Source: Hyphomicrobiales bacterium (GTDB lineage: Bacteria > Pseudomonadota > Alphaproteobacteria > Rhizobiales > CBDCVD01). From it: DNA of 64,000 nucleotides. Positions 3,324-56,446 of this stretch are shown one piece after another. The notes under the pieces are model-generated. The model had not been told where the DNA came from. It saw nothing but the letters and a program-made list of their open reading frames with translations, and made no database searches. Where the stretch lies: contig OZ245032.1 in assembly GCA_965224015.1 (NCBI GenBank), forward strand, positions 854,863-918,862, given 5' to 3'. Position numbers and translations under genes: made by a program. Position 1 is the first letter of the stretch, and each line of letters opens with the position of its first letter.

Positions 3324-3424
3324 TACCAAGGGCCTTTGACAATAACTCATGCATTAGCGTCAAGTAAGTATGTTATCAAGGCGGTACACCAGACGGCGTG
3401 TATATAAAGCCAATACCGCTGGTA
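3324..3424 (-). mobile_element. 101-bp MITE (family R1)
   Basis: TACCAAGGG...CGCTGGTA flanked by TAA/TAA. Confidence 0.85.
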
Positions 3425-3636
3425 TAATCGGATAACCAAGCCGGACGGTTCTGGATAGGGAACGGCGTTGGGGCAGAGTTTATGGCCCGATTGTCTTGCA
3501 GGTAGAGTAACCCGTCTCTAGCAGACATTTTGAACGCATCCAAGGCCCATTGTCGGCTTGTATTGGTATATTGGTAAATCCGTATTGGTAAAACACAGTC
3601 AAGCTGACAAAATACCATACGAAACCGGGAGGATTT

Positions 3637-5517
3637 GTGGCCATGCACAACGGGAGAGAGAACAGAGCTGGAGACCGCAAGCAATCCGCACAAATGGAGG
3701 CCGGGGGTGTGAATGCCTTGTCTGGGGTTCCCGGGGCTCTTGATGCGGAAATGTTTGGGCAGAATATGCTACGCGCCTATGAGGCGCTTGGTCAGGTGGT
3801 TATGGCGCTGGCGGAAAATCGTCAGCAGGCCGGTGTCGACAGACTTGCCGCGGAGGAAGTGAATCAGGCCGCGAAAAGTCTTTATGCGATCTGGCACTAT
3901 TGGGTCTCTCAGCCAGAGCGCGCACAAAAGGCCCAGTCGTCGCTCGTGCAGCAGATGAGCGAGACCATGACGCACCATTATGCACGCGCTTTCGGTCAGG
4001 AAGGACCGCCAGGCGAAGGCAACGGCTCGGCCGGAAAGGACCGACGGTTTTCTGATAAGGATTGGGACAACAACCCGGCGTTCTCGATGCTGCGCGATGT
4101 TTACCTCGGGTTCAGTTCTTGGGCGCAAACGCTTGTCGACGATGCTGGCGAGGTGGACGAGCATACCAGACGCAAGGCCGAGTTTTATTTGCGTCAACTG
4201 ATTGCGGCGCTGGCACCGACCAATTTTCCCCTCACCAACCCGGAGGTTTTGCGCGAGACTCTCAACAGTGGCGGTGAGAACCTCGCCCGCGGGTTGGAAA
4301 TTCTCGCCGAGGACATTACCGCTGGTAAGGGGCGGTTGAAAATTCGCCAAACGGACACAAGCCAGTTTGTGTTGGGGGAAAACATCGCCAACACGCCGGG
4401 TAAGGTCATCGCGCAAAACGACCTGCGGCAGCTGATTCAATACACCGCGAGCACCGACAAGGTTTTAAAACGCCCCTTGCTGATCGTGCCGCCGTGGATC
4501 AACAAATTCTATATTCTTGATCTGAACGCACAAAAGTCCTTTATAAAGTGGGCCGTGGAGCAGGGACACACGGTGTTTGTGGTCTCCTGGGTCAACCCGG
4601 GGAAAAAATACATGCACAAGGGCTTTGATGACTATCTCCGCGAGGGGGTGATCGCGTCCCTTGACGATATCGAAACCATAACAGGTGAGAAAAAAATCAA
4701 CACAATAGGCTATTGTGTTGGGGGCACTTTGCTGGCGGCAGCCCTTGCCTATATGGCGCAAAACCGCGACCATCGTGTCGCCAGCGCTACGTTTTTTACC
4801 ACCCAGGTTGATTTCACCTACGCGGGAGACCTGAAGGTATTTATCGATGATGAGCAGATCGCCGCCATAGAAGAGGTCATGCAGGAGCAGGGGTATTTCG
4901 ACGGTTCAGCCATGGCCAATGTCTTCAATATGTTGCGCCCACAGGACCTGATCTGGCCCTATGTGGTCAACAATTATCTTAAGGGCAAGGAGCCAATACC
5001 ATTTGACCTTCTTGCCTGGAACTCTGACGCGACGCGTATGAGCGCGGCCAATCACAGTTTTTATCTGCGTCAATGCTATAAGGACAATACGCTTGCCAGG
5101 GGGCGCATGGTCATTGACGGCAAGACCCTGAAACTGGCCCAGATCAAGCAGCCAATCTACATGTTGGCGGCCCGCGAGGACCATATTGTCCCGGCGCGCT
5201 CTGCGTTTCTGGGCAGCCAGATGTTTGCTGCAAAGGGTGCCAATGTACGCTTTGTACTCGCCGGTTCCGGCCACATCGCCGGGGTTATCAATCCCCCCAT
5301 CAAAGCCAAATACCAGTATTGGATTGGCGGCAAAGTGGGAGGCGAGTTGGACGACTGGATTGCCGATGCGCGCGAGTATCCGGGCTCCTGGTGGACAGAT
5401 TGGCATATCTGGATGCTCAAGCAGCACAATGGCGAGGTGCCAGCGCGTGAACCCGGTGGGGGCAAGCGCGACCCTATTGAGGACGCACCCGGGTCTTATG
5501 TCCGCGTTGGGGCCTGA
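3637..5517 (+). CDS. phaC: Class I polyhydroxyalkanoate synthase
   Basis: PPWINKFYILDL, lipase box GYCVGG, DHIVP, GSGHIAG. Confidence 0.95.
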   Translation: MAMHNGRENRAGDRKQSAQMEAGGVNALSGVPGALDAEMFGQNMLRAYEALGQVVMALAENRQQAGVDRLAAEEVNQAAKSLYAIWHYWVSQPERAQKAQSSLVQQMSETMTHHYARAFGQEGPPGEGNGSAGKDRRFSDKDWDNNPAFSMLRDVYLGFSSWAQTLVDDAGEVDEHTRRKAEFYLRQLIAALAPTNFPLTNPEVLRETLNSGGENLARGLEILAEDITAGKGRLKIRQTDTSQFVLGENIANTPGKVIAQNDLRQLIQYTASTDKVLKRPLLIVPPWINKFYILDLNAQKSFIKWAVEQGHTVFVVSWVNPGKKYMHKGFDDYLREGVIASLDDIETITGEKKINTIGYCVGGTLLAAALAYMAQNRDHRVASATFFTTQVDFTYAGDLKVFIDDEQIAAIEEVMQEQGYFDGSAMANVFNMLRPQDLIWPYVVNNYLKGKEPIPFDLLAWNSDATRMSAANHSFYLRQCYKDNTLARGRMVIDGKTLKLAQIKQPIYMLAAREDHIVPARSAFLGSQMFAAKGANVRFVLAGSGHIAGVINPPIKAKYQYWIGGKVGGELDDWIADAREYPGSWWTDWHIWMLKQHNGEVPAREPGGGKRDPIEDAPGSYVRVGA

Positions 5518-6434
5518 GCCAGCGCGGTGTTATACTCCTGCGCCAAGCGCGTTACAAGATCGCTGACCGGTAGCACATCGGTAACTCCCGCAGCCCCCTG
5601 CCCGGCGGACCATATGGTTTTCCAGGCGCGCGCCTCAGGATTGGCCTCGGCAGCCAGATCCAACTTACCGTGTTCCGGCAGGTCGTCCGGATCAAGCCCT
5701 GCATCCATAAGGGAACGACGCAGAAAGTTGGCGTGAACACCAGATATCGCTTTGGTGTAGACAATATCACCCGCGCCCGATTGGGCGATCATGTCTTTGT
5801 AGGCAGGCAGGGCCAGGCTTTCCATGGTGTTGATAAAGCGGGTGCCCATATAGGCCAGATCCGCCCCCATAGCACGGGCTGCGGCAATACCGGCACCGTT
5901 GCAAATGCATCCTGCAAGGATAAGCGTGCCGTCAAACCAGGACCGTATTTCCTCTAAAAAGGCGAACGGATTGAGGGTGCCCGCATGACCCCCGGCGCCG
6001 CCACACACCAGGATAAGCCCGTCAACCCCCGCCTCCGCAGCCTTTTGCGCATGGCGAAGCTTGATCACATCGTGAAACACCACCCCTGCGTAACCGTGCA
6101 CCGCATCGACCACATCACGCACCGCGCCAAGGGAGGTGATCACCAAAGGAACCCGATGTTTGATGGTCACTTCCAGGTCCCGCTTCAGGCGGGGATTGGT
6201 CTTGTGCACAATAAGGTTGACCCCATAGGGGGCATCATGCGGCCCGAGCGCCTTGCCAATTGTGGTCAATTGCGTGTCGTAATCCTCAACGGTGCGCAGG
6301 TTCAGGGAGGGAAAGGTGCCGATGATCCCCGCCCTGCACGCCGCAATCACCAGGTCGGCGCCGGACACCAGAAACATGGGCGCGGCAATCGCCGGTAGCC
6401 GCAAGTTTTTATCCAATAAGGTGGGTATCGCCAT
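5496..6434 (-). CDS. Nitronate monooxygenase family flavoprotein
   Basis: APMFLVS, GGAGGHAG, ADLAYMGTRFI; 3' end overlaps phaC by 22 bp. Confidence 0.85.
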   Translation of the reverse strand: MAIPTLLDKNLRLPAIAAPMFLVSGADLVIAACRAGIIGTFPSLNLRTVEDYDTQLTTIGKALGPHDAPYGVNLIVHKTNPRLKRDLEVTIKHRVPLVITSLGAVRDVVDAVHGYAGVVFHDVIKLRHAQKAAEAGVDGLILVCGGAGGHAGTLNPFAFLEEIRSWFDGTLILAGCICNGAGIAAARAMGADLAYMGTRFINTMESLALPAYKDMIAQSGAGDIVYTKAISGVHANFLRRSLMDAGLDPDDLPEHGKLDLAAEANPEARAWKTIWSAGQGAAGVTDVLPVSDLVTRLAQEYNTALAQAPTRT

Positions 6435-6506
6435 CGTCCTCGCGCCCTTGTTGCTAAGCTCTATTGCCGCGCTGCTCTGCGCGTCCTTTGCCCATAAACC
6501 TGTTTT

Positions 6507-7439
6507 TCAAGCCATATCATCACCGGTGCCGATCGCATCCAGGTCGTAAGGGGTCGTCTGGTACATATCATTAATCCAATTGCCAAACAGCAAATGCGCA
6601 TGGGACCGCCAGCGGTTCTCCGGCGGCTTGGTCGGATCATCGTTGGGGTAATAGTTGGCTGGCAAGGTAATTGGCGTCCCTGCCTTGATGTCCCGCTGGT
6701 ATTCCTTACCCAGATCAACACTGTCATATTCGATATGATTGAACATATAGAGGAAGCGGTGGGCCCGGTCGTGAACCAGGCAGGGGCCGGTCTCAGGGGA
6801 GTCGATCAAAAGCCGCAACCGCTCCCCCAGCGCCATGTCAGCGCTGCGCACCTCCGTCCAACGGGACACGGGAATGGAAAAGTCGTCGGAAAACCCGCGC
6901 AGAAAAGGTGATGAGGGATCAAGATTGCGATGCCGGAACACACCGAAAGCCTTGTTTGGCAAAGGATATTTCGGCAAGCCAAAGAAATGGTGCATGGCCG
7001 CCTGCGCTCCCCAGCAAATGGCCAGGCTCGAGTGCACGTGCGCCTGGGTCCAATCCAGGATATCACTTAATTCGCGCCAATAGGTGACGTCGGCGAACGG
7101 CAGTGTTTCTATCGGCGCACCGGTGATAATAAAGCCGTCAAACTTACGTGCGCGCATCTCTTCCCAAGGCTTGTAGAACGCCTGCATATGCTCGGCAGAC
7201 GTGGTTTTCGGCACGTGGTCTGTTATGCGCACCAGGGTCAATTCCACTTGCAGCGGCGTTGCGCCAACCAGACGGGCATATTGGGTCTCGGTGCGCACCT
7301 TGTCGGGCATAAGATTAAGAAGACCAATCTGCAACGGGCGAATATCCTGGCGCAGAGCCGTGCGCTCGGACATGACCATTACGCCCTCACGCTCAAGTAT
7401 GGCGCGGGCGGGCAAATCATTGGCGATCTTGATTGGCAT
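6507..7439 (-). CDS. metA: MetA-family homoserine O-acyltransferase, probably acetyl-specific
   Basis: [26 protein letters not shown] (catalytic Cys), HIEY; Glu at the specificity position. Confidence 0.93.
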
Positions 7440-7467
7440 GGCAGGCTCGTTGGCTCGTTGGCTTGGT

Positions 7468-8361
7468 TTACGCGGGTTCGGACGCTGTTACGCCGGGTTT
7501 TGAAGCTTCGTCGATGACCTGGGCACACACATCGATAATGGTCGCTGCGCTTTCAGCCTCTGCCAGTCTTGCGGCGTCGACCACATATCCATAGCGCTCC
7601 GCAATAGCTTCATAAAGGGGCAAGCGGTGGTCGATTAATGCCTTGAACCCGTAAATCGCAAAGGCATCCGGGTCCACGTCCTGATCCCCCGCAATGGCAT
7701 TAACATCCTTAAAACGTGCCCAGGTCTGGTGCAAAAACGCCTCGTTATAGTACATTGGTTTTGGCGCTCTGCGAAATCGTTCGATCAAAGCGTCGGTCTG
7801 CGCCTGGTCGCTGCGGATATATACGAGTACGGTATTGTCACAAAGGCTGCGCAGAACCGGATCGCTGGGATCATCAACATCCACAACCTCACAAAAACTG
7901 CCGCCCGTGTCACAGACAAAATGATCATAGCCATAGGTCGTGCGTGCGTTGGTAATAAAGTCCTCGGTATCAAGCAAGGCATTGATTTCGGCGCGCCGGT
8001 GCTGGCGCTGGCGATGCAGATATTGACAAAACGGCAGCCCTCCCCTGGTCTCGTCACCAGGCTTGCCCAAATAAGTGGACAGGGGAGCCAGATTCTGGAA
8101 TGTAATATTTGATGAAATATAGATCGAATCCGACTTCAGCAGATCGCGAAAGAACGGAACCGTCATGGCAATGCGCTTATAGTTGTCACTGATGTGCTCG
8201 CCCATGTAGCGGGTGCCGATGCGATAATCGACGGAATAGTGATACCAATCCTGGGCCCGTAACCGATTGGCGATCACGGTTTTTCCCGCACCCGACATGC
8301 CAAAAAGCGTGAGCGCCTTTTTATTCCAATGGCGAAACGCCGTACCGTTCTCGAATTTCAT
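7468..8361 (-). CDS. Uncharacterised P-loop ATPase, co-oriented upstream of metA
   Basis: Walker A GMSGAGKT; 28-bp gap to metA. Confidence 0.75.
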
Positions 8362-8596
8362 AAATCAGATTGTCCATCCAGGTGTAGGTAGCGTGTATCA
8401 ACTGTTATTTGGCAGGTTGGGGCCATGCAACAGCAGGGCGAACACACGCTGGGCCTTTCTATTAACGGGCATCTACCGGCCCGCTCCTTCCGTCTTGGGC
8501 CACCCCCAGGGTACTCTTTCACCGGTGGTTGGGGCCCTAAAAGTTGTGAAAGGGGGCGGGCTGGCCAGGTCGTCAATAGACGTTCCCGGTTAAAAC

Positions 8597-8740
8597 CTAT
8601 AGCAAAATGCTTTTAATTGGATTCATCGGCACTGCTGTATTTTTCCCGCATTTTGCTATAGATTTAGAGGGCGATCAGCTTTATGGGTTTCGCTTATACC
8701 AAGGGCAAAATGGGTATAAGCTAACCCCATGCTGATCTAG
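8597..8740. repeat. Composite palindromic repeat (R3 + linker + R2 carrying an R1 stub)
   Basis: CTATAGCAAAATGC...GCATTTTGCTATAG (8597-8661), linker ATTTAGAGGGCGATCAGC, TACCAAGGG stub (8697-8705), end ATGCTGATCTAG; near-identical unit at 61565-61706. Confidence 0.8.
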
Positions 8741-9384
8741 GACCCGCGTGCGAGCCTGCGCAATTTATCCATCGCCGTTTGCCTGTCCTCACCAACCGCA
8801 ATCGTTCCCAGCAAACTACCATCGCGACGCACCAAAAAGATAGAGGCCGTGTGGTCTATCGTATAGTCTTCGTCTTCAAGCAAGACCTTTTTCGCAATAA
8901 CCCGCCAGGACCGCGCAAGGTCAGCGATCTGTTTGGCGTCGCCGGTGATGCCGACAATGCGATCCGTAAAGGCTGTAACATAATTGTGCATGACCGGTGC
9001 CGCATCACGCGCCGGATCAACGGTGATGAAAAACGCGCGGACATCGCGGGCCTCCTCTCCCAATTCACGTAACCATAGCGCCAGCTCAAATAGGGTCGTT
9101 GGACACACATCAGGGCAATGGGTATAGCCAAAAAAAAGCGCCACCGGATGCCCTGCCAGGGCCTTTTCCGTGATGGGCGCACCGGTGTGGTCAATCAGTT
9201 GAAATGGGGACCCCAGAGGTGACGAGGCGTTGTTCAAAAACGCCGATTTTTGCGCCTGGGGGGAAAGCAGCATGCGACTCCCAATCACCGCAGCGGCAAT
9301 AAATACCAAAGCCCACAAAGCGTATCGGATGGCTGTTAGCATTGTGTTGGGCTTGCGTCCTTGCGCATGAGAAGCCCCGGCCAC
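8737..9384 (-). CDS. SCO family copper chaperone
   Basis: FFGYTHCPDVCP (CxxxC) and DHTA motif; N-terminal TM helix. Confidence 0.93.
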   Translation of the reverse strand: MAGASHAQGRKPNTMLTAIRYALWALVFIAAAVIGSRMLLSPQAQKSAFLNNASSPLGSPFQLIDHTGAPITEKALAGHPVALFFGYTHCPDVCPTTLFELALWLRELGEEARDVRAFFITVDPARDAAPVMHNYVTAFTDRIVGITGDAKQIADLARSWRVIAKKVLLEDEDYTIDHTASIFLVRRDGSLLGTIAVGEDRQTAMDKLRRLARGS

Positions 9385-9388
9385 GGGA

Positions 9389-11367: not shown

Positions 11368-11397
11368 AAGCTACTGCTCGCACATATACATCAATAA

Positions 11398-25662: not shown

Positions 25663-27287
25663 GTCGTTTGTGAAGAATTTCCATTGCATTGATATTGTTT
25701 GATTATCAGGCTTTTCGGGCCTTCGATATTGCAAGATTTTGCACGCCTGTGGTTTGTTTCCTTGCAATTTGCGTAACGTCCTTTTCTGTGATTCACTGGT
25801 CAAACAAGTGATTTGGAGAGGGATATGAAGCCAAGAGAACCTTTTAAGACCGGTCAGTTCGATATGTTTCGTTCAAGGCTGGATCAGATCATCAACATGG
25901 GCCACGAGAAGGCGATTTTAGCCGACAAGATCGATTGGCAATTTCTGTCGGATAAATGTGAGGCAGTCTATGCGGACAAAGCCGGTCACCCGCCCCTTCC
26001 GACGCGGCTGATGGCGGGACTGCATATCCTCAAATATGCCGACAATCTTTCCGATGAAGAAGTCTGCGCCCGCTTTGTGGAGAACCCGTATTATCAATAT
26101 TTGTGCGGTGAGGAGTTCTTTCGTCATGATCTTCCGCTTGAGCGCTCGTCAATGACCCGATGGCGTCAGCGGATGGGCGAGGAGAGGATACAAGCCCTGT
26201 TGCAGGAGAGCCTTGCCGTGGCCTTGAAAGTGGGGGCTGCGAAGCCTTCGGATTTTACCCAGGTGATTGTCGATACCACGGTTCAGGAGAAGAACGTTGC
26301 TTATCCAACGGACGCCAAACTGTGTCACAAGGCCCGGGAGCGGTTGGTTAAGCTGGCGAAGAAGCACGGCATCAAGCTACGCCAGTCCTATGTGCGGGTG
26401 AGCAAGAAGGCCCTGATCAAACACCAGCGCTATGCCCATGCCAAGCACTACAAGCGGGCGAAAAGGGAATTAAAACGCCTTAAAACCTGGCTTGGCCGTA
26501 CCATTCGTGACATCAAGCGTAAGATTAAAGGCAACAAGGCCCACCAGGAGGCTTTCCTGCGGCCCCTGTGGCTGGCCGAGCGGGTGATGACCCAGAAACC
26601 GCGGGATGATATTCCAAAGAAAGTCTATAGCCTGCATGCTCCCGAGGTAGAGTGTATTGGCAAGGGAAAGGCTCACAAGCCTTACGAGTTTGGCGTCAAG
26701 GCATCAGTGGCCACCACGCTCAAGCGTTCAAAGGGGGGTCAGTTCGCCATTCATGCCAAGGCATTGCCGGGCAGGCCGTATGATGGTCACACACTTGCCA
26801 GCGTCATTCCCGCGATTGAGGCAATCACCGGTGCAGTCCTCAAGCGTATTCTCGCAGACGCCGGCTACAAGGGCCACAACGCCCCCTTAAGTCACAAGTT
26901 TCGGGTCTTTACCGCCGGCCAGAAACGAAGGGTGACACCGGCCATCAAACGCCAGATGAGACGACGGGCAGCAATTGAGCCGGTGATACCAGCGGTATTG
27001 GCTTTTTGTACAAGCTGACTTGTGTGTCGTATTGATAAGACAACGGTTTTACGCTGGGCCAGGAGTCAAACGCAAGGCCCCTTGGTATGATGGGTCATCT
27101 CAAGTCAGGACACCGCATGGATCGGAACTATCTTGCTCATGAACAAGGCGATGCCATCAACCCGATCCTTGCAGCCGCAGGCTACAACTTCCGCCTTATC
27201 CTCAAATGGATCAAGGCTTTTTGTTTCAAAATCTGGATCGTGTGGATATTCAATCAATCAGCCAAAATCGCATAGTTCACAATCGAC
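25663..27287 (+). mobile_element. Second IS5-family element (large single transposase), nested and itself disrupted
   Basis: IRs GTCGTTTGTGAA / TTCACAATCGAC; TATATC duplicated on both sides; transposase motifs DTTVQEKN, KPYEFG, DAGYKGH, AAIEPV|GHLK split by a MITE. Confidence 0.9.
26987..27087 (+). mobile_element. 101-bp MITE (R1), diverged copy inside the transposase gene
   Basis: TGA-TACCAGCGG...CCCTTGGTA-TGA; removing it plus one TGA restores CCG GTG ATG GGT CAT (PVMGH). Confidence 0.9.
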
Positions 27288-27361
27288 TATATCGGCTTTA
27301 TCTTTATCTTTATCTTTATCGTCTCCGCTAGACTGTGGTGCAAACAGTGTGTCAACACAGC

Positions 27362-27411
27362 CTAGATCAGCATACGTTGAGTTGTCCCTATAGCAAAATG
27401 GGTACACCTAA
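27362..27411. repeat. R2-family repeat (partial)
   Basis: CTAGATCAGCATACGTTGAGTTGTCCCTATAGCAAAATGGGTACACCTAA. Confidence 0.7.
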
Positions 27412-27532
27412 ACGCCGGCATCGGCTTTGGCGACCCCAGCTTTTTGACAGGCGCATTCACTTCACCAAGTTTTTCCCTGTGGTGCGTCATTTCCATTTCT
27501 TTCAGTCAATCCCGCCGCGCAAAGGCTTCGTG

Positions 27533-39046: not shown

Positions 39047-39794
39047 TTGTGATCGCATACTTGGTATTGCAGCCAGGCCCTTTCTAAGCGACGTAAAGGT
39101 GTTAATCTGGTATTTTTTGAGGATTTTCATTCGGTCTCTGCATGGATGCTTGAAGTGCAATATCCCCAATTTCCATAGCAGGGATCGGATGGACAACCTA
39201 CTGATGGACAACCTGCTGAAAGCTCACTCCTTGCAATAGCCTCAATTAGGTGTGTTAGCAAGGCCGCACCCCAGACGGCGTGTCTATAAAGCCCATACCG
39301 CTGGCATAAGTCTTTGAAAGACAAAAATTATTCGTTTGCAAATTGTTAACTATTGCATGCACGGTACCCCGATCCAAATAGCGGGAGAGCTCAAACCAGC
39401 AAGGTTAATAAGCCCGCCGTGAAAGCTCGGGAGCGAGCCTTTATGCCCCAATGTGAGACATACTATCGGGCGGCGGCAGCACATCATCAACACCGGACAT
39501 GCAAGGCATGAATTACAGGTTATGCGAGCTTATCGCGAAATTTTCCCTCACTGCGGGTATTCTTGACGACAAAATGATGGCCCTTAAGGCTCCAGAGCTC
39601 AGTTATGCCCCCACGGCTGTGCTTTTCCGATCGAAAAATAGCGGGGTTCAGGCAAGGTTTTGGCTTCACATTGCGTTATGGTTGCATGGCAGTGAAAGCC
39701 CGCGGTGCCAGAACAAATAGCCTGTTAACGGATCAAACGAATCCCGAACAAAGCCAAAACGAATCAGGGGTAAAATCATTGGTAGACATGTGAT

Positions 39795-40013
39795 TAGATC
39801 AGCATGGGCTTAGGTGTACCCATTTTGCTATGGGGACAACTAAGCCCATAAAGCTGATCGCCCTCTAATACCAAGGGTCCTTAACAATGACTCATGGCTT
39901 AGCGTCGAAGAGGTGTGTTATCAAGGCAGTACACCAGTCAGCGTGTCTATAAAGCCAATACCGCTGGTATAAATCTATAGCAAATGATTCCCATTAAATG
40001 CATTTTGCTATAG
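39795..40013. repeat. Composite R2-linker-[R1]-R3 repeat
   Basis: TAGATCAGCATGGG...GCTGATCGCCCTC-TAA[MITE]TAA-ATCTATAGCAAATG...CATTTTGCTATAG. Confidence 0.8.
39869..39969 (-). mobile_element. 101-bp MITE (R1)
   Basis: TAA duplication; the empty site GCCCTCTAAATCTATAG is at 56373-56389. Confidence 0.9.
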
Positions 40014-42390: not shown

Positions 42391-42491
42391 TACCAGCGGT
42401 ATTGGCTTTATGTACACGCCGACTGGTGTACTGCCTTGATAACATACTTGCTTGACGCTAATCCATGAGTCATTGTTAAGGACCCTTGGTA
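42391..42491 (+). mobile_element. 101-bp MITE (R1)
   Basis: TTA-TACCAGCGG...CCCTTGGTA-TTA. Confidence 0.88.
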
Positions 42492-43588: not shown

Positions 43589-44905
43589 ATGAAGGCCTCC
43601 GCAAGCGTGCACATGCCGGGTGAAGGCGATTATACTGCACTTTGCCGCGATTGCTTTTACCTTTTCGATGGCCCGGGCACGACTCTATTGCGTTGTCAGC
43701 GGTGTTTTGGCACCCGCGTTGTGGCCCATGAAGAGCTTATGGCCCTTGCCATCGCCCATGTGGACTGCGACGCGTTTTATGCCAGTGTGGAGAAGCGCGA
43801 CAATCCGGATCTGCGCGGCAAACCGGTGATCGTGGGGGGCGGCACACGCGGCGTGGTTACGACCGCGTGTTACCAGGCCCGCATTGCCGGTGTGCACTCG
43901 GCCATGCCCATGTTCAAGGCGCGCAAGGCCTGTCCCGAGGCGATTATCATCCGCCCGAACATGAAAAAATACGTTACCGTGTCCAGGCAAATTCGCACCC
44001 GGATGCGCCGCCTGACCCCTCTCGTGCAGGCTGTTTCCATTGATGAGGCTTATTTGGACTTAAGCGGCACCACCCGTTTGCATGGGGCCCCGCCGGCGGT
44101 ACTGTTGGCGCGGCTGGCCAGGGACATTGAGACAGACATTGGGATTACCATTTCGATTGGGTTGAGCACCAACCGATTTTTGGCCAAATGCGCCTCTGAT
44201 CTTGATAAGCCCCGGGGGTTTTCGGTGATCGGCGCAGGCGAGGCGCAAGACTTTTTGCACGACAAGCCGATCCGCTTTATTGGCGGTGTGGGTAAGGCCA
44301 TGCAAAAGATGTTAAGGCGCGACAATCTTCATACGATTGGCCAATTGCAGGCCCTGGACGCGCGAGATTTGGCACGCCGCTATGGCGCCATGGGGGTCTT
44401 GTTGGCCAAGCGCGCACGCGGCATTGACAACTCCCGTGTAACCCCCAACCGCGGCGCCAAAAGCATCAGTTGCGAGACAACCCTTGGCCGTGATATCGCC
44501 AGTGAGGCCCTGTTGCGGCGGCGCCTGCGGGCTTTGAGCGAGCGTGTCTCCCATCGGCTCAAGCGTAATCATTTGGGCGGCCAATCCGTGACCTTGAAGC
44601 TCAAGACCGCGTCCTTTCAGACCTTGACCCGATCGCGAAAGCTCAACGCGCCCACGCAGCTGGCGGATCGTATTTTTCACGAGGCTGCGGATCTGTTGCG
44701 CCGGGAAATCAGGGGTACGGCTTATCGGCTCATTGGTGTTGGCGTTTCGGATCTGTGCGCGGAACGGTTTGCAGACCCCGACGACCTGATTGAGCAAGAG
44801 CGCCATAAGCGTCGGCGGGCAGAGGAAGCCATGGACCGGGTGCGTGAGCGTTTCGGCTGGGAGGCGGTGAAAACCGGTCTGACATTTGATAACAAAAGGG
44901 TCTGA
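43589..44905 (+). CDS. dinB: DNA polymerase IV
   Basis: HVDCDAFYASVE, SIDEAYLD, KCASDLDKPRG; N-terminal Cys cluster as in alphaproteobacterial DinB; start uncertain. Confidence 0.95.
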   Translation: MKASASVHMPGEGDYTALCRDCFYLFDGPGTTLLRCQRCFGTRVVAHEELMALAIAHVDCDAFYASVEKRDNPDLRGKPVIVGGGTRGVVTTACYQARIAGVHSAMPMFKARKACPEAIIIRPNMKKYVTVSRQIRTRMRRLTPLVQAVSIDEAYLDLSGTTRLHGAPPAVLLARLARDIETDIGITISIGLSTNRFLAKCASDLDKPRGFSVIGAGEAQDFLHDKPIRFIGGVGKAMQKMLRRDNLHTIGQLQALDARDLARRYGAMGVLLAKRARGIDNSRVTPNRGAKSISCETTLGRDIASEALLRRRLRALSERVSHRLKRNHLGGQSVTLKLKTASFQTLTRSRKLNAPTQLADRIFHEAADLLRREIRGTAYRLIGVGVSDLCAERFADPDDLIEQERHKRRRAEEAMDRVRERFGWEAVKTGLTFDNKRV

Positions 44906-44967
44906 TGTTTGATAACAAAAGGGTCTGACGTTTGACAACAAAAGATTCTGGCGTTTGATAACAAAAG
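44876..44967. repeat. 23-bp tandem repeat x4 overlapping the dinB stop
   Basis: GGTCTGACATTTGATAACAAAAG-like units at 44876, 44899, 44922, 44945, with no spacers. Confidence 0.9.
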
Positions 44968-45991: not shown

Positions 45992-47800
45992 ATGACGGCA
46001 AGACTACAAGCGGCTGAAAAGGCTGAATGCCCCCACCCGCCGGTCGTTTACCCACAGCGGCAAGTGTTGTATCAAGTTAAGCCCCTACCCCTGTTGGTCG
46101 GCATTTGCCTTTTCGGCCTTGCAGCCTTGGCTTTGCCCCCTGCGGCCAACGCCGCCTGTCCCGGCGTAATCGCCTCCGGTGAGACGCAAACCACGCCCCA
46201 AACCCTCGCTAATCAGGGCGAGACATGTACCGTGGAGTCGGGTGGCACAATCAGAACGAACAATGCAAATGGTATCAATACCAGCAGCAACCGGCACGTG
46301 ATCTCCAACTTCGGCACAATACAGACGAGCGGATTCCAAGTGCGCGGCGTGGAGATCCGTGGAAGAAACAATGTATTGTCCAACTTCGGCACAATACAAG
46401 CGACTGGTGCGCAAGCGCGCGGCGTGTTCATCCGAGGCCGTGGCAACGTATTTTATAACGGTGGCACTATAGAAGCGAGCGGCACACGCAGTTTAGCCAT
46501 CAGAATCCAAACACCGAACAATCAGATGAACACCCTGACCCTGCTTCCCGGCTCTCGTATCATCGGCGACGTCAGACTTGCCGGCGGGGGCTCTGAAACG
46601 GTCAACTTTTACAACCGCGTCGGCACCGTGATCACATTTGACTTTACATCAGGAACCGGCTTGCCGGAAGTCATCGATACCAACGGGCGGCCCTTTGTGA
46701 CCATCCCCGCGCCAGGTGGTGTTGGTAACCCTTACGTGGTCGTTGTCGATCCCACCGCCTTCGGCCAAAACGACGAGCGCCTTGCGGACCTGACAGGGGC
46801 GATGTTCGGTGCAATCCATACCCACCTTGATGATATCCGGCGGCTCCCTGCGGTCGCATCGGGGCCCACAAGCCGCGCGTCGATGCAGATCGGTGTCAGC
46901 GTCGCCGACGAGCCCTTTGAGATCGCGGATCCTGTTGTCGACACGGTGATTGATCACAAGACGAACCTGTGGGCGCAGGTCATCGGCGCCCACCGCCGTG
47001 AGGAGGAAAAAGGCATCAGCAATGAGGCCGATCACAATCTGCTGGGTGTTATCATTGGCTTTGATAGCCCCATAGACACCGACACTCTCGCGGGGTTGCG
47101 CCTTGGCGGATTTCTCGGCGCCGCGGTCGGTGAAACCGAGATCGGCTATAACAGCCAGCATATTGATACGACAAACTTCTTCGGCGGCATTTATGGGGAA
47201 TACGCGCAGGAAAACTGGTACACGCGCCTGACCCTTGGACTGGGGATCATTGATCACGACAGCACCCGCCTGGTGATGGACAATCTGGCACCAAACGGCT
47301 CGTGGAATGCACGCGCTTCCTATGACGGGATGTTTATCTCGCCGGAATTCGCAGTGGGGGCTGACTACGACATGAGCGGGACGCGCATTAGCCCAAGCCT
47401 CAAGCTGCGCTATGGGTATATGTCCCTCGACGGGTACACCGAAACAGGCGCGCCTGCCAATGTTTCCCCAAGCCTCCTGACCATAGCCGATCGGGACGTG
47501 AATCTCCTGTTGGGTCGGGCGCAGATCGCCTTTGCACGCACCTGGAGAGCCCTTGACCTCAGGCCACGGATTGGTGTGGAGGGGCACCTTAGCGACAGTG
47601 ACAACGTGTCCGCCAGCATCGCCGGGACCGCCCTGTCTTTTGCCCCTGCAGGGGAGAAAGAGGCCATAAGCGGATTTGTCGGCGCGACCGTATCAGCGGA
47701 TTTTGGCGGCGAGGCGACCGCCTATGTTGATGCCGAGGCGCATTTAGGCAATAACGGTTACCGATTTGCCGCAAGCCTCGGCCTGAGCGTACGGTTTTAG
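45992..47800 (+). CDS. Autotransporter (beta-helical passenger + beta-barrel)
   Basis: SNFGTIQ repeats, barrel-like alternating strands, C-terminal LGLSVRF; start uncertain. Confidence 0.82.
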   Translation: MTARLQAAEKAECPHPPVVYPQRQVLYQVKPLPLLVGICLFGLAALALPPAANAACPGVIASGETQTTPQTLANQGETCTVESGGTIRTNNANGINTSSNRHVISNFGTIQTSGFQVRGVEIRGRNNVLSNFGTIQATGAQARGVFIRGRGNVFYNGGTIEASGTRSLAIRIQTPNNQMNTLTLLPGSRIIGDVRLAGGGSETVNFYNRVGTVITFDFTSGTGLPEVIDTNGRPFVTIPAPGGVGNPYVVVVDPTAFGQNDERLADLTGAMFGAIHTHLDDIRRLPAVASGPTSRASMQIGVSVADEPFEIADPVVDTVIDHKTNLWAQVIGAHRREEEKGISNEADHNLLGVIIGFDSPIDTDTLAGLRLGGFLGAAVGETEIGYNSQHIDTTNFFGGIYGEYAQENWYTRLTLGLGIIDHDSTRLVMDNLAPNGSWNARASYDGMFISPEFAVGADYDMSGTRISPSLKLRYGYMSLDGYTETGAPANVSPSLLTIADRDVNLLLGRAQIAFARTWRALDLRPRIGVEGHLSDSDNVSASIAGTALSFAPAGEKEAISGFVGATVSADFGGEATAYVDAEAHLGNNGYRFAASLGLSVRF

Positions 47801-47807
47801 GGCCTAT

Positions 47808-47869
47808 AGATCAGCATACGTTTAGTTGTATCGCTCACAAAATGGGTACAGCTAACCCCATGCTGATCT
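47808..47869. repeat. R2-family repeat, intact
   Basis: AGATCAGCAT...ATGCTGATCT terminal inverted repeats; holds the empty TTA site (47822-47824). Confidence 0.8.
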
Positions 47870-47920
47870 CATATGGACCTTAAGCCTCTTGCAAATAGCC
47901 CCCTATATCCTGCAAGACTA

Positions 47921-48227
47921 TACCAGCGGTATGGGCTTTATGGACACGCCGACTGGTGTACTGCCTTGATAACACACCTGATTGACACTAATGCATGAGC
48001 CCTTGGCAAGGGCCCTTGGTATATACCAGCGGTATGGGCTTTATGGACACGCCGACTGGTGTACTGCTTTGATAACACAACGCTTTGACGCCAAGGCATG
48101 AGCCCTTGGCAAGGGCCCTTGGTATATGCCAGCGGTATGGGCTTTATGGACACGCCGACTGGTGTACTGCCTTGATAACACACCTGATTGACGCTAATGC
48201 ATGAGCCCTTGTCAAAGACCCTTGGTA
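47921..48227 (+). mobile_element. Three head-to-tail 101-bp MITEs (R1) separated by TA
   Basis: Units 47921-48021, 48024-48124, 48127-48227. Confidence 0.9.
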
Positions 48228-50423: not shown

Positions 50424-52529
50424 ATGTTTGATAAGATCCTAATCGCCAATCGCGGGGAGATCGCCTGTCGGATCATAAGAACGGCAAGCCGCTTGGGTAT
50501 CAAAACCGTTGCCGTTTATTCAGATGCAGACCGCAGAGCCCTGCATGTGGAGATGGCGGACGAGGCGGTGGCCATAGGTCCAGCTGCGGCGGCGGCATCT
50601 TATCTGGTGGGCGATGCGATCGTTGATGCGTGCCGACAAACCGGGGCGGAGGCGGTTCATCCGGGCTACGGATTTTTGTCGGAGAACGCCGCTTTTGCGC
50701 GTATGCTCAAGGATGCGAACATCATTTTTGTTGGTCCCAATGCCGCGGCCATTGAGGTCATGGGAGACAAAATCGCTTCCAAGAAAGCCGCACGGGATGC
50801 CGGCGTCAATACGGTTCCCGGCCATATCGGCCTTATAGAAGACGAAGCCCACGCCATCCAGATCGCCGATCAGATCGGTTATCCGGTCATGATCAAGGCC
50901 TCAGCGGGCGGCGGCGGCAAGGGGATGCGCATTGCGCACAATGCAGATCAGGTTGCCGAAGGCTTTCGTCTTGCCCGCTCGGAAGCTTTGTCGTCGTTCG
51001 CCGATGATCGCATTTTTATCGAAAAGTACATTACTGATCCGCGTCATATTGAGATTCAGGTTCTGGGCGATTCGCATGGTCATATTATTCATCTTGGCGA
51101 GCGGGAATGCTCCATTCAGCGACGCAACCAGAAAGTCATAGAGGAGGCCCCCTCGCCACTTCTTGATGACAAGACCCGAGCGCTTATGGGCGAGCAGGCT
51201 GTTGCTCTCGCCCGGGCCGTCTCCTATGATTCGGCGGGAACCGTGGAGTTCGTCGTCGATCAGGATAAACGTTTCTACTTTTTGGAAATGAATACCCGGC
51301 TACAGGTGGAGCATCCGGTCACCGAAATGATTACCCGGGTTGACCTGGTGGAGCAGATGCTTCGGGTGGCCAGCGGCGAAAAGCTGCCGCTTACCCAGGA
51401 TGACGTGCGCGTCAGGGGCTGGGCGATCGAAGCACGCGTTTATGCCGAGGACCCCTTGCGCGGCTTCTTGCCCGCCACGGGGCGTATTCGCGGCTTGAAG
51501 CTTCCCGGCAAGCCCAATCAGGCATCGATACCCTCAGATGCCAACGCCAGCGTTCGCATTGACACGGGTGTTGTCGAGGGTAGCGAAATTTCTCTCTATT
51601 ATGATCCCATGATCGCCAAGCTGGTCACCCACGGGCCCGATCGCGCGCGCGCCATTGCCGCCATGGCAAACGCGCTTGATGGATTTTCCGTTGATGGTGT
51701 GGTGAATAATCTTGGCTTTTTATCGACGATTATGGACAACGGGCGCTGGCGCGACGGGCACCTTTCGACGCACTTTATCGACGAAGAATTTGGGGAGACG
51801 TTTGCCGGCCGGGACCTGACACAAGCAGAGCACGCGCAGTTGGTAGGGGTTGCGCTTTCGCTCAACATCAGGCAGCGGGCCCAGCTCAACCAGCTCTCCG
51901 ATCGCCTGCGTCCGCATGCGGGCGACTATAGCGGCGACTGGGCCGTGCGATTTGACGACGCCTGGGTCGAGGTCAATGTGAAGGCCGTTGAATGTTCCGG
52001 CCATGGACGGGCATGCAGCTTGCGCTACAGCTGGGCTGCGCGGGAAGAGCCTGGCGAACCTGGCGAATACCATGTTCACATGCACGATTTTGACAACGGG
52101 CTGTGGCGGGGCACAATTGCCGATGCCGACAAACCGGTCGAGGCCGACGGGCCAAAACCGCGATCGCACAAGGCCCGGGCGCTGTGTGTTCAGGTACGTC
52201 CCCAGATCAATGGATGGTCGCTGCACTGGCGCGGCGCGGTTCGGGATGTTCGGATCGTGCGCCCGCGCGTTGCCGCCCTGAACGCCTTGATGCCCGTCAC
52301 GCAAGCGCCCGACATGTCTGCCATGGTGCTATGTCCCATGCCCGGAACCGTGGTTTCCATTGCTGTCAGCGAGAACCAAAGTGTCAAGGTCGGCGATGAA
52401 CTGTGCGTTGTGGAGGCCATGAAGATGGAAAACGTATTGCGTGCGGAACGCGATGCGCGCATTGTCCGTATCAACGCCGCACCAGGCGACAGTCTGGCGG
52501 TCGATGCCGTGATTATGGAGCTTGAATAG
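50424..52529 (+). CDS. pccA: Biotin-dependent acyl-CoA carboxylase alpha subunit, probably propionyl-CoA carboxylase
   Basis: MFDKILIANRGEIA, ERECSIQRRNQK, EMNTRLQVEH, biotin motif EAMKMEN. Confidence 0.88.
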   Translation: MFDKILIANRGEIACRIIRTASRLGIKTVAVYSDADRRALHVEMADEAVAIGPAAAAASYLVGDAIVDACRQTGAEAVHPGYGFLSENAAFARMLKDANIIFVGPNAAAIEVMGDKIASKKAARDAGVNTVPGHIGLIEDEAHAIQIADQIGYPVMIKASAGGGGKGMRIAHNADQVAEGFRLARSEALSSFADDRIFIEKYITDPRHIEIQVLGDSHGHIIHLGERECSIQRRNQKVIEEAPSPLLDDKTRALMGEQAVALARAVSYDSAGTVEFVVDQDKRFYFLEMNTRLQVEHPVTEMITRVDLVEQMLRVASGEKLPLTQDDVRVRGWAIEARVYAEDPLRGFLPATGRIRGLKLPGKPNQASIPSDANASVRIDTGVVEGSEISLYYDPMIAKLVTHGPDRARAIAAMANALDGFSVDGVVNNLGFLSTIMDNGRWRDGHLSTHFIDEEFGETFAGRDLTQAEHAQLVGVALSLNIRQRAQLNQLSDRLRPHAGDYSGDWAVRFDDAWVEVNVKAVECSGHGRACSLRYSWAAREEPGEPGEYHVHMHDFDNGLWRGTIADADKPVEADGPKPRSHKARALCVQVRPQINGWSLHWRGAVRDVRIVRPRVAALNALMPVTQAPDMSAMVLCPMPGTVVSIAVSENQSVKVGDELCVVEAMKMENVLRAERDARIVRINAAPGDSLAVDAVIMELE

Positions 52530-52537
52530 CCGGGCCT

Positions 52538-52561
52538 CTATTAAGACCTGACACGCTCTAG
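52538..52561 (+). repeat. 24-bp R4 motif containing the galE stop codon
   Basis: CTATTAAGACCTGACACGCTCTAG. Confidence 0.7.
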
Positions 52562-53547
52562 TCACGGCGCAAATCGCGTAGTTTTTTCTCCCACACCAAA
52601 GCATGAGTAACGATTGTGTCTAAGCTCTCATAGCGGGGTTTCCAGCCAAGAACCGAACGAATCGCCTCAGCGCCGGCAACAAGCACCGCTACGTCGCCTG
52701 CGCGCCTTGGCGCTTCACGCACCGCAAAATCAACCCCGCTGGCGCGCTTTACCGCAGCGATCACCTCCAACACAGAGGCGCCGCGGCCATATCCGCAATT
52801 GAGCACCAGATTATCCCCCCCCTTTCGCAAATGCGCAAGCGCCAGCATATGTGCCTCTGTCAGGTCTTGCACATGAATATAGTCCCTGATCCCGGTCCCA
52901 TCCGGAGTATCATAATCCGTTCCAAACACGTCCATGTAAGACCGCTGACCGGTTGCGGCCTGACAGGCAATTTTGATCAAATGGGTGGCATTGGGACTTG
53001 CCTGGCCGCCATGTCCCGCCGGGTCGGCCCCCGCTACATTAAAATAGCGCAGCACCGTATAGCGCAGATCGTGAGCAATGCCCGCATCGCGCAGCATCAT
53101 CTCCACCATCATTTTGGACCGTCCATAAGGAGACGCCGGCGCCAGGTTCGCGTCTTCAAAGACAGGAACCCTCGCCCCCTCTCCATAAACAGCCGCGGTG
53201 GACGAAAAAATAAAATGCTCAACCCCCGCCGCAACCGCCGCCGCAATGAGCGTCAGGGCCTTGGCGGTATTGTTGTGATAATAGACGAGCGGGTCCGCCA
53301 CCGAGTCCGCCACAACGATCGAGCCGGCAAAATGCACGATCGCATCCACACGATGTTCGGCAATAACCTGCGCCACCAGCGGCCTGTCGCCAATATCACC
53401 AACAATCAGAGTGGCTTCGCGCGCCACCGCCCAGTCGGCTCCCTGGGATAGGTCGTCGATGACCACAACCTGCTCATGCCTTGACACAAGGTCGCGCACC
53501 ATTTGCGCGCCGATATATCCGGCTCCACCGGTCACCAATACTGACAT
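52558..53547 (-). CDS. galE: UDP-glucose 4-epimerase
   Basis: TGGAGYIG, SSTAAVYG, YGRSK, LRYFNVAGA, RDYIHV. Confidence 0.95.
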   Translation of the reverse strand: MSVLVTGGAGYIGAQMVRDLVSRHEQVVVIDDLSQGADWAVAREATLIVGDIGDRPLVAQVIAEHRVDAIVHFAGSIVVADSVADPLVYYHNNTAKALTLIAAAVAAGVEHFIFSSTAAVYGEGARVPVFEDANLAPASPYGRSKMMVEMMLRDAGIAHDLRYTVLRYFNVAGADPAGHGGQASPNATHLIKIACQAATGQRSYMDVFGTDYDTPDGTGIRDYIHVQDLTEAHMLALAHLRKGGDNLVLNCGYGRGASVLEVIAAVKRASGVDFAVREAPRRAGDVAVLVAGAEAIRSVLGWKPRYESLDTIVTHALVWEKKLRDLRRD

Positions 53548-53580
53548 AATTAACCCCGGCTATGGCTCATGATCAGATAA

Positions 53581-53681
53581 TACCAGCGGTATTGGCTTTA
53601 TAGACACGCCGACTGGTGTACAGCCTTGATAACACACCTCTTTGACGCTAATCCATGAGTCATTGTTAAAGACCCTTGGTA
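53581..53681 (+). mobile_element. 101-bp MITE (R1)
   Basis: TAA-TACCAGCGG...CCCTTGGTA-TAA. Confidence 0.9.
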
Positions 53682-53909
53682 TAAATGGCTGGTAGCGCCT
53701 TTCTATAGACATGAACCGACAAAGCACAAGAAAAAGGTCCTTGTCCAGAATTGGGGTTAATGACTTAACGACCTGCCGCTCACGTCCAAGGGGCGAGCGG
53801 ATTTCTCCACATCCGCTTTCACAGTTCAGCGGGTTACAAGGTTTTGGGGATTGCGTCCAGCTTAAAATCAGGGCACCCAAACGCCGGTCGCTCGTAAAGC
53901 CGGGCCTTT

Positions 53910-53933
53910 CTATTAAGACATGGCACGCTATAG
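53910..53933 (+). repeat. 24-bp R4 motif
   Basis: CTATTAAGACATGGCACGCTATAG. Confidence 0.65.
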
Positions 53934-54200
53934 GTGTGTAATTGCAACAGTTTGTCCCTGGTAAATGCATCGGGTGCAGTTGGCCATTCGTCTGATCATG
54001 AGAGATGTTCGATTTCTCCCGCGTTGTCAAGGGCGCTTCGCGCCGCTTTCAGCGGTTCTTAAACCCTTGACAACGCGAGAGAAATCGAAAAAAAGCAATG
54101 ATCAGATGAATGGCCCGATATGGCCTTGCTAGCGGCAATGGCCGCAATAACCCTGACTTCAGACCTGCCACCTTGAGAACAACTTATTGAAAGATTACAT

Positions 54201-56018
54201 CTAGGGCTGGAGGCGCACCCGCAACCCGATCCGATGTTCCTTGTGGCTTTCCCCGGCAAACGAGCTGTGCACGTGCTCATAGGTATATTCCGGTTTGACT
54301 TCGATGCGAGGATCGGGCTGATAGACAATCCCTGTATTCACGGTAAAGGTCCGCAATGTGCGCCGCTGAGGGATTGCCACGCCACCGGTAAAAGCCGGTG
54401 ATGTGGCAATGCGCTCAAAGTCGATGTCGTAGGTGGCGTCCAGTTCAAGGGCGAGGGCGCGACGTAGCATTTGGTTGAGAGAAAGCCCCATACGGTATTG
54501 GGTCACACCGAAAATACCGGTTTGCGTGCTGGGTACAAACCTGGAGGCAATACCCAGGTCGAGGGTTGTAAGGTCGCTGGGGGTCCAGGTCATATGCAGC
54601 GCCCCGGCGTAAGCCTCGGCGCGCGGCACCCCGGGAGTGCTGAACACCAGCGGCTCGTAGCCAAATCGGGCCTCGCCGCGCAAACTGCTGGCCAGATTAA
54701 ACCTGGCACCAACGCGCCCGGCATAAAGAGTCGCGTTACTTGATTTATCAGGACTTTTGCCGCGCAAAATATAGCGGCCGATGGCGACTTCAACGAAGGG
54801 CTGAAACGTATCACTATGCTCTAGCGAAAGACGCAGCGCCAGCGAGCCATCAAGGCTGTCGCGGGAGAATTGCACCGGAACCATAGTAAAGCCCATGGGA
54901 CCCCCTGGCACCGTTGCAATGAGAATATCCGGATCCTCATAATTGATCACTCTGATCTGGCCGCGCAGGGTCACGCTGCCTGTCTCAAACTGATGCCGCA
55001 ACGCGGCCTCAACAGAGGTTTTGTGGACATAACTCGGCTTGGCCATCCGCGCCGGTTGCAGTTTAAATCGCGAGTTGCGCTCCTTCTCGAAAGCATAGCT
55101 GGCGGCAAAATCCGTTGTTGTGTTCTGAGAAAAATCCAGACGCCCGCTTAGATCCACACCCACTTGGGTTGTCGAGGCTTCGTTTTGAGAAAAATAATGC
55201 AGCCTGCCAACGTCCACATCAGCATTGAAAGCATGTCGCTCCCCGTTTGAACGCAGACCAAATCCCACAGTTGAACGGGCAAAGACGCTGTGCCTGCCGT
55301 CAGGTTTGCTGGCGGCGTTGGTGGTATAGCCGAATTCGCCCTCCCAAAACGGCATAAAGCGAAGCCCCTGCCCTTCCAGGTCGGGCTCATGACTTGGTTC
55401 GTCATGGCCTTCCTGGTCAGTTGGCGGCAACTCCTGGGAACCGACCCATTCAGCATCTGTGCCCTCTTCGGACGCTGCAATGGTGTCCATGGTAGGGGGT
55501 TGCGGTGCAGGCTGCGGAGTGGGATCGCCTTTGTAAACCGGGGATAGGTCGCGCTCAGGCGGCGCGTCCCAAATATTCACATTGTCAAGGATCGGGTCGC
55601 TGTCGTCGGGCAAGTGTGCGCCGGCTAGCAGCTCAGGCCTTCGGGCTCGCTCGGCCAGGGCCTCATCAATGGGATCGCGCTCATTATCAGGCCTTAGACG
55701 GACCGGCGCCTGCACCTGAGACGACGGTATGGGTGCTGCTGAAGGCCCCTCCCCCGGGTCGCCACGGGTCGGATCAAGGGTACTGAAGTCCTCCGGCTGT
55801 TGCGGCTGCTCCATAAGCTCACGCCGGATGCGCCGCAACTGCTCTTGTTTGGATTGTTGCGCTAAAGGCTCTCGCCCAGGCTCGGCGATATCCATAACAT
55901 CGGGTTCTTGCAACTGGGAGCCGCGCAGCTCCTCTGGCGTCAATTTGTCCGCAGCCATTACCGGGAGCGCGAGCCCCGCCAGCAAGAACCATAGAAACAA
56001 GGGGTGAACAGTCATCAA
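54201..56018 (-). CDS. Outer-membrane beta-barrel protein with an acidic/Pro-rich N-terminal region
   Basis: Signal peptide, low-complexity linker, GYTTN followed by amphipathic strands. Confidence 0.75.
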   Translation of the reverse strand: MMTVHPLFLWFLLAGLALPVMAADKLTPEELRGSQLQEPDVMDIAEPGREPLAQQSKQEQLRRIRRELMEQPQQPEDFSTLDPTRGDPGEGPSAAPIPSSQVQAPVRLRPDNERDPIDEALAERARRPELLAGAHLPDDSDPILDNVNIWDAPPERDLSPVYKGDPTPQPAPQPPTMDTIAASEEGTDAEWVGSQELPPTDQEGHDEPSHEPDLEGQGLRFMPFWEGEFGYTTNAASKPDGRHSVFARSTVGFGLRSNGERHAFNADVDVGRLHYFSQNEASTTQVGVDLSGRLDFSQNTTTDFAASYAFEKERNSRFKLQPARMAKPSYVHKTSVEAALRHQFETGSVTLRGQIRVINYEDPDILIATVPGGPMGFTMVPVQFSRDSLDGSLALRLSLEHSDTFQPFVEVAIGRYILRGKSPDKSSNATLYAGRVGARFNLASSLRGEARFGYEPLVFSTPGVPRAEAYAGALHMTWTPSDLTTLDLGIASRFVPSTQTGIFGVTQYRMGLSLNQMLRRALALELDATYDIDFERIATSPAFTGGVAIPQRRTLRTFTVNTGIVYQPDPRIEVKPEYTYEHVHSSFAGESHKEHRIGLRVRLQP

Positions 56019-56202
56019 TCAGTCAGCCACGTGGAGTCAATGCCAAACAAAAGCATCGGCAAAAGCAAAATCACCAAAGCGCGAATTTTGCTGCAAAAGC
56101 AGTCGATTTTCGCTGTACACACCAAGGCCCGGTCAATCAGGGGAGCCGTTCGGAGCAATTGTATTGACAATTCGTAAAAGAATAGGGTTAACAGATCGTT
56201 GT

Positions 56203-56446
56203 CTAGATCAGCATACGTTTATACCAAGGGCCCTTGCCAATGACTCATGCATTTGCGTCAAAGCGTTGTGTTATCAAGGCAGTACACCAGCCGGCGTGTC
56301 CATAAAGCCAATACCGCTGGTATTAGTTGTCCCCATTTTGCTATGGGGACAACTAAACGTATTAAGCTGATCGCCCTCTAAATCTATAGCAAAATGCAAA
56401 AACATGGTGGATGCTCATGATTCCAACTAAACGCATTTTGCTATAT
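56203..56446. repeat. Composite R2[R1]-linker-R3 repeat
   Basis: A 19-bp stem ATACGTTTAGTTGTCCCCA/TGGGGACAACTAAACGTAT has its left arm split by a MITE; R3 at 56384-56446. Confidence 0.82.
56222..56322 (-). mobile_element. 101-bp MITE (R1) inserted in an R2 repeat
   Basis: TTA duplication; the empty site CATACGTTTAGTTGT is at 47815-47829. Confidence 0.92.

Follow-up and report, generated by a model that had tools for sequence, protein, structure and literature searches.

A family of 101-bp, TNA-duplicating miniature elements, apparently undescribed and orphan, in the chromosome of a Hyphomicrobiales bacterium

The stretch of DNA considered in the current analysis (the window, 64,000 nucleotides, C1:854863-918862) belongs to the single chromosome (C1) of a Hyphomicrobiales bacterium (GCA_965224015.1, contig OZ245032.1), the assembly of which comprises 3.6 Mb and includes two plasmids of 60 kb (C2) and 42 kb (C3). 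A non-coding element of 101 bp is scattered over this window and is identified here as a probable MITE, a miniature transposable element with inverted repeats. Its left end is taken to be TACCAGCGGTAT and its right end ...CCCTTGGTA; by this convention the 101-bp copies include five in plus and three in minus orientation, besides the one at 26987, which is a divergent plus-strand copy. All nine full copies listed in an earlier note on this DNA (3324, 26987, 39869, 42391, 47921, 48024, 48127, 53581 and 56222) were found at those positions.

Six of the copies are solitary, and the duplications of TAA, TGA or TTA that had been claimed for them can be read directly on both sides of every one. They are an A-type copy at 3324..3424 (minus strand, TAA/TAA), a divergent B-type copy at 26987..27087 (plus strand, TGA/TGA) situated within the transposase gene of an insertion sequence (IS) of the IS5 family, and copies at 39869..39969 (minus, TAA/TAA), 42391..42491 (plus, TTA/TTA), 53581..53681 (plus, TAA/TAA) and 56222..56322 (minus, TTA/TTA), of which those at 39869 and 56222 are hosted by another repeat family. 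The remaining three form a head-to-tail trimer on the plus strand (47921..48227) with units at 47921, 48024 and 48127, a period of 103 and TA spacers; its third unit begins with TGCC in place of TACC and its outer flanks are CTA and TTA. Partial copies had been reported at four places and two of these hold, namely a true fragment of 76 nt covering model positions 2-77 (39230..39305, minus strand, noted earlier as ~39275) and a right-end fragment of about 25 nt, TACCAAGGGTCCTTGACAATGG..., preceded by TTA (60793..60820, minus strand, noted as ~60792). The other two (8697..8706 and 61665-61674) consist only of the 10-nt end motif TACCAAGGGC within the other repeat family and are not real partial copies.

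The ends of the element, TACCAGCGGT and the reverse complement of TACCAAGGGT, match at 8 of 10 positions, so that the imperfect terminal inverted repeats described previously are indeed present. The left end TACCAGCGGTATT together with the flanking A makes up a perfect 13-nt palindrome, ATACC-AGC-GGTAT, and the right end is CCNNTGGTA. The element has no open reading frame (ORF), and it folds no better than shuffled sequence on either strand (z of -0.8 and +0.2). A scan of the window against Rfam recovered only two tRNAs, and no family in it matches the element.

Insertion of the element is documented by paralogous sites that exist in filled and empty form. An empty target with a single TTA, ...gcatacgtTTAgttgt..., is found at 47815..47829, and the sequence around it, gatcagcatacgtTTAgttgt (47807 region), shows what ...acgtTTA[101 bp]TTAgttgt... 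at 56222 looks like without the element. Another empty target, with a single TAA (...gatcgccctcTAAatctatagc..., 56369..56390), is the counterpart of the filled site at 39869, the unfilled form of which, ...gctgatcgccctcTAAatctatagc..., also occurs on the minus strand at ~8650-8676. Both of the empty sites recognised in the earlier note are therefore real. A further one, with TCA, has been identified in the IS5 copy of the window (25869..25895), and this site is filled, as tggaTCA/TCAgatc, in 6-7 paralogous copies of the IS elsewhere on the chromosome. There are in all four paralogous empty sites in the window and one elsewhere on the chromosome, and each time the filled form is longer by exactly 104 bp (101+3).

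This comparison bears on the idea that the family might consist of IS630/Tc1-mariner-type MITEs that duplicate TA and simply have ends starting with TA, for which TA at both ends and the IS630-family copies of the genome could be cited. The IS630 ends read AGCATTTCCGG... and lie in CTAG, and the TA duplication is refuted by the sites themselves, since the empty ones have one TNA and the filled ones have two around 101 bp, a gain of 104 bp and not of 99+2; next to no credence is left for this reading.

The copy at 26987 interrupts the IS5-family transposase gene (25813..27275, plus strand, end approximate) within its YREK motif, after the E and before the K. As noted earlier, removal of the copy and one TGA restores the reading frame (...RRAAIEPVMGHLKSGHRMDRN..., that is ...RRAAIEPVMGHLKSGHRMDRNYL...), and with the IS5 model NF033578 the protein thus repaired reaches 510 bits. 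A diverged paralogue of the split gene at C1:1776174 is uninterrupted at the insertion point. The IS with the split transposase (25700-27330 in the window) is present in 8 copies, the others being at C1:487587, 505890, 2081710, 2610047, 2929023, 3086679 and 1646910, and all carry the same B-type insertion; 6-7 of the 8 have a second MITE near the 5' end. This IS, expected to be transposase-dead, has still multiplied, presumably through movement in trans or through copying as part of larger segments.

An nhmmer search of the genome with a profile of the nine window copies gave 618 matches, all of them chromosomal; end-to-end copies number 415, and 392 have a length of exactly 101 bp. The genome-wide count that the earlier note had called for thus reveals a high-copy family. 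Identical 3-bp flanks, all of them TNA, are found in 290 of the 415 end-to-end copies. When copies duplicated inside larger repeats are collapsed, 360 independent insertions remain, and 263 of these have identical TNA flanks (TTA 124, TAA 110, TGA 24, TCA 5); random re-pairing of left and right flanks yields a mean of 118 matches and a maximum of 141. The central base therefore co-varies between the two sides and the duplication is real, so that the TNA duplications hold for the genome as they do for the window. TWA accounts for 85% of the targets as against 46% of intergenic TNA sites, and G/C is enriched symmetrically 4-5 nt on either side of the central base of the target. Weakly palindromic targets of this kind are typical of DDE transposases.

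By a crude gene model made for this analysis, 342 of the 392 exact 101-bp copies are fully intergenic with no orientation bias relative to genes, and the stop codon of a gene serves as the target, in exact abutment, for 37 of the 392. An identical twin at another locus is found for 85 copies, and the nearest neighbour is usually 0-2 bases apart; most of the variation falls on about 15 polymorphic positions, by which subfamilies are defined. Judged from these distances the copies look young and the family looks recently active. At 29 independent insertions with a G/C central base the orientation of the element is coupled to that base (TGA 24 vs TCA 5, p = 5e-4), while TAA and TTA are even; the coupling points to an asymmetric contact of the two unlike ends with the target. 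Mini-derivatives of 11-31 bp, which hold little beyond the joined ends and are flanked by TNA, have also been identified, such as one of 26 bp at C1:2313383 (C1:2313383-2313408, 2093233-2093263, 3307682-3307712 and 2463028-2463038). They could be deletion products or excision scars.

Clusters of adjacent copies number 54 in the genome, about 45 of them head-to-tail. The usual junction is GGTA-TA-TRCC, with a period of 103, but there are arrays with a period of 101, of 102 (spacer A) or of 104 (spacer TNA) as well. The outer flanks of the arrays nearly always match. Among the internal left ends at TA junctions, TGCC is counted 26 times and TACC 15 times, as compared to about 8 of 427 with TGCC outside arrays; other junctions have AGCC or GACC. 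In the one congeneric (sister) species, G001, three separate arrays have a period of 99 and an altered internal right end, in which CCYTGTA is directly followed by TACC. The units of one array share locus-specific variants, suggesting that arrays grew or were homogenised in place. Descent of all TGCC-type dimers from one mobile dimer was considered and rejected on account of these variants and because the arrays stem from different subfamilies. Multimers may persist when the internal end is crippled, which would leave only the outer ends usable.

The arrays also raise the question of what the unit is. It could be argued that the real element is one of 103 bp (ATACC...GGTAT, with perfect 5-nt ends), that the duplication comprises no more than the central base of T|N|A, and that the arrays of period 103 are exact abutments. 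The commonest junction, GGTA-TA-TACC, would then be exactly two abutting 103-bp units, and the perfect 13-nt palindrome made by the left end and its flanking A also speaks for this reading. Both parses yield an identical sequence, which cannot separate them, and arrays with periods of 101, 102 and 104 exist as well. One-base target duplications are very unusual for DDE transposases. We regard the 103-bp unit as unlikely.

Insertion sequences resident in the genome were considered as possible sources of the mobilising enzyme. Those with mapped ends include an IS1182-like element (13 copies), an IS427-group element (7), IS481 (5), IS630 (4), IS110 (3) and an IS1031-group element (1). None of the mapped ends, which cover all but the MITE-interrupted IS5-group element and a second IS427-group family, is TACC-like, and most lie in CTAG. 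The absence of TACCA ends from the insertion sequences of the window, pointed out in the earlier note, was borne out and extends to the whole genome, and the transposase flanked by TACCA...TGGTA that the note proposed to look for did not turn up in the complete genome. The IS1182-like, IS427-group, IS481 and IS630 families, which are most of those mapped, sit in CTAG, often within one short repeat (ctagagcgtgtcaggtcttaata), as for example at C1:535742, 1810024, 457551 and 2934560. One IS427-group copy (C1:1810024) is situated inside one of the 101-bp elements, an arrangement reminiscent of IS711 in the Bru-RS repeats of Brucella.

The only resident IS found to duplicate TNA is a single IS5 element of the IS1031 group, 932 bp long (C1:2890272-2891203, TTA/TTA). 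As the sole maker of such duplications, with 210 bits on NF033580 and a homologue in G001, it could be imagined as the mobiliser, acting on ends unlike its own. Its ends (GAGCCTGATTGG... and GAGTCTGATTCA...) bear no similarity to the ends or the interior of the MITE, and transposases normally need their own ends; we consider such a role improbable, slightly more so than the 103-bp unit.

Genes of the Y1_Tnp family are encoded in the source genome (G000) and in G055 and G056, two genomes that represent other families of the same order. Together with the small palindrome at the left end, they bring to mind a palindromic element of the REP/BIME kind, spread by a Y1 (RAYT or IS200-type) HUH transposase. 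The true target duplications with their co-varying central base speak against it, and G001, with about 370 copies of the end motif, has no Y1 gene. In the source genome the Y1 genes belong to two identical and ordinary IS200-like elements of 571 bp with their own ends and a transposase frame of 154 aa (C1:1910515-1911085 and 3050952-3051522), which are absent from G001. This explanation is accordingly held to be highly improbable.

The distribution of the family was followed by BLAST on 40 relatives and by a 13-nt end pattern in 400 genomes each from the order and the class. The pattern matches 475 times in G000 and 369 times in G001, is slightly above background in G055 and G056, and both searches gave only background beyond these four genomes. 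Sampled 101-bp copies have been confirmed in G001, where the family is mainly of the B-type, about 73% identical to the A-type that dominates in G000 and represented in the window by the copy at 26987. Synteny between G000 and G001 is almost gone and their intergenic DNA is not alignable. G055 has a family of its own, with at least 40 matches scored out of 102 candidates and 34 matches to a variant end, ATACCGGCGGTATT; the sampled copies are flanked by TNA and have near-perfect terminal repeats of 9-11 nt. A few elements of a further kind are found in G056. Representatives of the four kinds align without gaps over 101 columns and have in common positions 1-13 (TACCRGCGGTATT), a central TGA (47-49) and the right end CC..TGGTA, and little else. 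The end, the length and the duplication type therefore predate the genus and reach beyond it.

The conservation of length, ends and central TGA across very divergent families could also be read as the mark of a functional structured RNA or a regulatory DNA module, kept by selection and spread by recombination, and the exact abutment to stop codons in 37 of 392 copies would fit such a module. The lack of a fold beyond that of shuffled sequence, of an Rfam match and of any orientation bias to genes argues otherwise, as do the insertions inside a transposase gene and other repeats; moreover, the duplications need transposition. A functional module is thus very improbable, if marginally less so than a REP/BIME-like origin.

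Beyond these genomes, a BLAST search of a plasmid collection with the 101-bp element found nothing similar, two scans of JGI metagenome contigs gave none or one chance match, a scan of genome contigs with TNATACCAGCGGTATNH gave only chance singletons among the matches listed, and a search of the literature for the end sequences returned only primers. The suggestion that the family is possibly undescribed is upheld in that Rfam, the plasmid collection, the JGI metagenome contigs and the literature searched contain no match. The description of the MITE as widespread is appropriate within the genome and has to be withdrawn across bacteria, where the family does not extend beyond one genus and look-alikes occur in two further families of the order.

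Transposition with a 3-bp TNA duplication is known for the IS1031 group of the IS5 family (ISfinder family table), the ends of which begin with GAG. The 101-bp element has the same duplication length and TNA target, and lacks ends of the GAG type. Tourist MITEs of the PIF/Harbinger group in eukaryotes duplicate TWA (PMC4482050), and the 101-bp element resembles them in its TWA-biased 3-bp duplication and in the very high copy number of units of about 100 bp. It differs from Tourist and Harbinger in its bacterial host, and the four genomes that bear it have no DDE_Tnp_4 gene over the cut-off. As the end test fails, the family cannot be filed as a derivative of the IS1031 group or of Tourist/Harbinger. 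The link to the IS5 family drawn in the earlier note agrees in the duplication type, its one point of contact, and no cognate transposase has been found.

Prokaryotic MITEs include Correia/NEMIS of Neisseria, RUP of pneumococcus, ERIC, Nezha and Chunjie (reviewed in PMC10969869). The 101-bp element is like them in being small, non-coding, high in copy number and mostly intergenic, with terminal inverted repeats, a target duplication and no transposase gene of its own. It is unlike them in duplicating TNA and not TA, in its imperfect 10-nt repeats, in the lack of a long hairpin and in having no known parent IS. Bru-RS1 and Bru-RS2 of Brucella are repeated palindromic elements of 103 and 106 bp, according to the part of PMC10800456 that cites Halling and Bricker (1994). 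Compared by that description only, they resemble the 101-bp element in size, in the order of the host and in being targets of IS427-group insertion sequences. A direct relation seems unlikely, in that the scans of the order gave only background beyond the four genomes.

Taken together, the co-varying duplications across the genome, the paralogous sites in empty and filled form, the recovery of the reading frame and the lack of coding capacity and of a stable fold support the MITE interpretation of the earlier note. Insertion and duplication are demonstrated by the sequence. We infer its mobilisation in trans and also the type of enzyme, the latter from the duplication alone (DDE, with the 3-nt stagger known from the IS1031 group or from PIF/Harbinger). 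It is very probable that the 101-bp family is a non-autonomous, TNA-duplicating MITE which has been moved in trans by a DDE-type transposase and is now an orphan in this genome, since no transposase gene bounded by these ends is encoded in the complete genome.

In the mechanism proposed, a DDE-type transposase supplied in trans would recognise the short ends of the element and would make a cut with a stagger of 3 nt at a target of TNA, which is mostly TWA with weakly palindromic surroundings; repair of the gaps would give rise to the TNA duplication. The family would in this way have grown to about 480 full copies on the chromosome, and head-to-tail multimers would form often and last mainly with mutated internal ends. 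The present orphan state may have arisen because the mobiliser was lost, or because it resides on a mobile element outside the assembly or is unrecognisable by its ends.

Several observations weigh against this assignment. The terminal inverted repeats are short and imperfect (8/10), and the boundary is ambiguous, as 101 bp with a 3-bp duplication would read the same as 103 bp with a 1-bp one. The complete genome holds no autonomous partner: TACCA-type ends that lie 250-6000 bp from each other and have equal TNA flanks belong only to neighbouring MITEs, and the regions around sampled transposase genes of G001, G055 and G056 contain no IS bounded by MITE ends. Pfam scans of the four genomes covered DDE_Tnp_4, rve, DDE_Tnp_1 and Y1_Tnp, with ISL3, IS256, IS66, IS1595, Tn3 and others outside the scan. 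Within that scope DDE_Tnp_4 is missing over the cut-off from all four; the rve matches are five IS481 copies and one uninspected match (C1:140431-140712), none of them IS30- or IS3-like; and the DDE_Tnp_1 genes sit in insertion sequences with other ends, apart from three single-copy fragments without bounding end motifs nearby. The two plasmids carry no copy of the element, although C2 bears several insertion sequences and about 18 copies would be expected at the chromosomal density (by arithmetic), and this speaks against activity at present. The lack of a known partner IS is shared by many accepted MITE families. The family is real and apparently undescribed, an orphan that displays every structural feature of a MITE other than a known parent IS.

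Also frequent in the window is a second repeat family, of modular build (TAGATCAGCAT...CTATAGCAAAATGGGTAC...GATCGCCCTCTAA; 27350-27415, 39795-39868, 47800-47890, 56318-56400, 8576-8716 and 61544-61724). It carries paralogous empty and filled sites, and some of its copies include the MITE end motif TACCAAGGGC. Short tandem repeats unrelated to the MITE are found at 44871-44962 (four units of 23 bp) and at 46304-46453 (two units of 75 bp within an ORF).

If anything could lift the family beyond ordinary selfish DNA, it is only the absence of a transposase and the conservation of length and end. One may speculate that the 101-bp elements of the three bacterial families form one old superfamily, with a mobiliser of an unrecognised kind, and that they are not deletion derivatives of an IS; we rate this as a long shot, on a par with the 103-bp unit. 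If it were true, the elements would have retained their palindromic 13-nt end, (A)TACCRGCGGTATT, their exact length (about 101 bp), the TGA at the centre and the duplication of TNA, and hundreds of near-identical copies would be present in genomes without a transposase of matching ends. The mobiliser might then be, for example, host-encoded or otherwise not borne by an IS, possibly with a requirement for substrate length. Handles by which the enzyme may be found are offered by the 13-nt end and 101-bp length conserved over three families, by the arrays in which internal ends are mutated, and by the bias in orientation at TGA targets.

By arithmetic from the match counts, the family makes up about 50-60 kb of the 3.5-Mb chromosome. 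It is therefore a major shaper of the intergenic DNA of this lineage, a source of error in assembly and annotation, and a marker for strain typing. It also adds a bacterial MITE family that duplicates TNA/TWA, a kind much rarer in the literature than those that duplicate TA.

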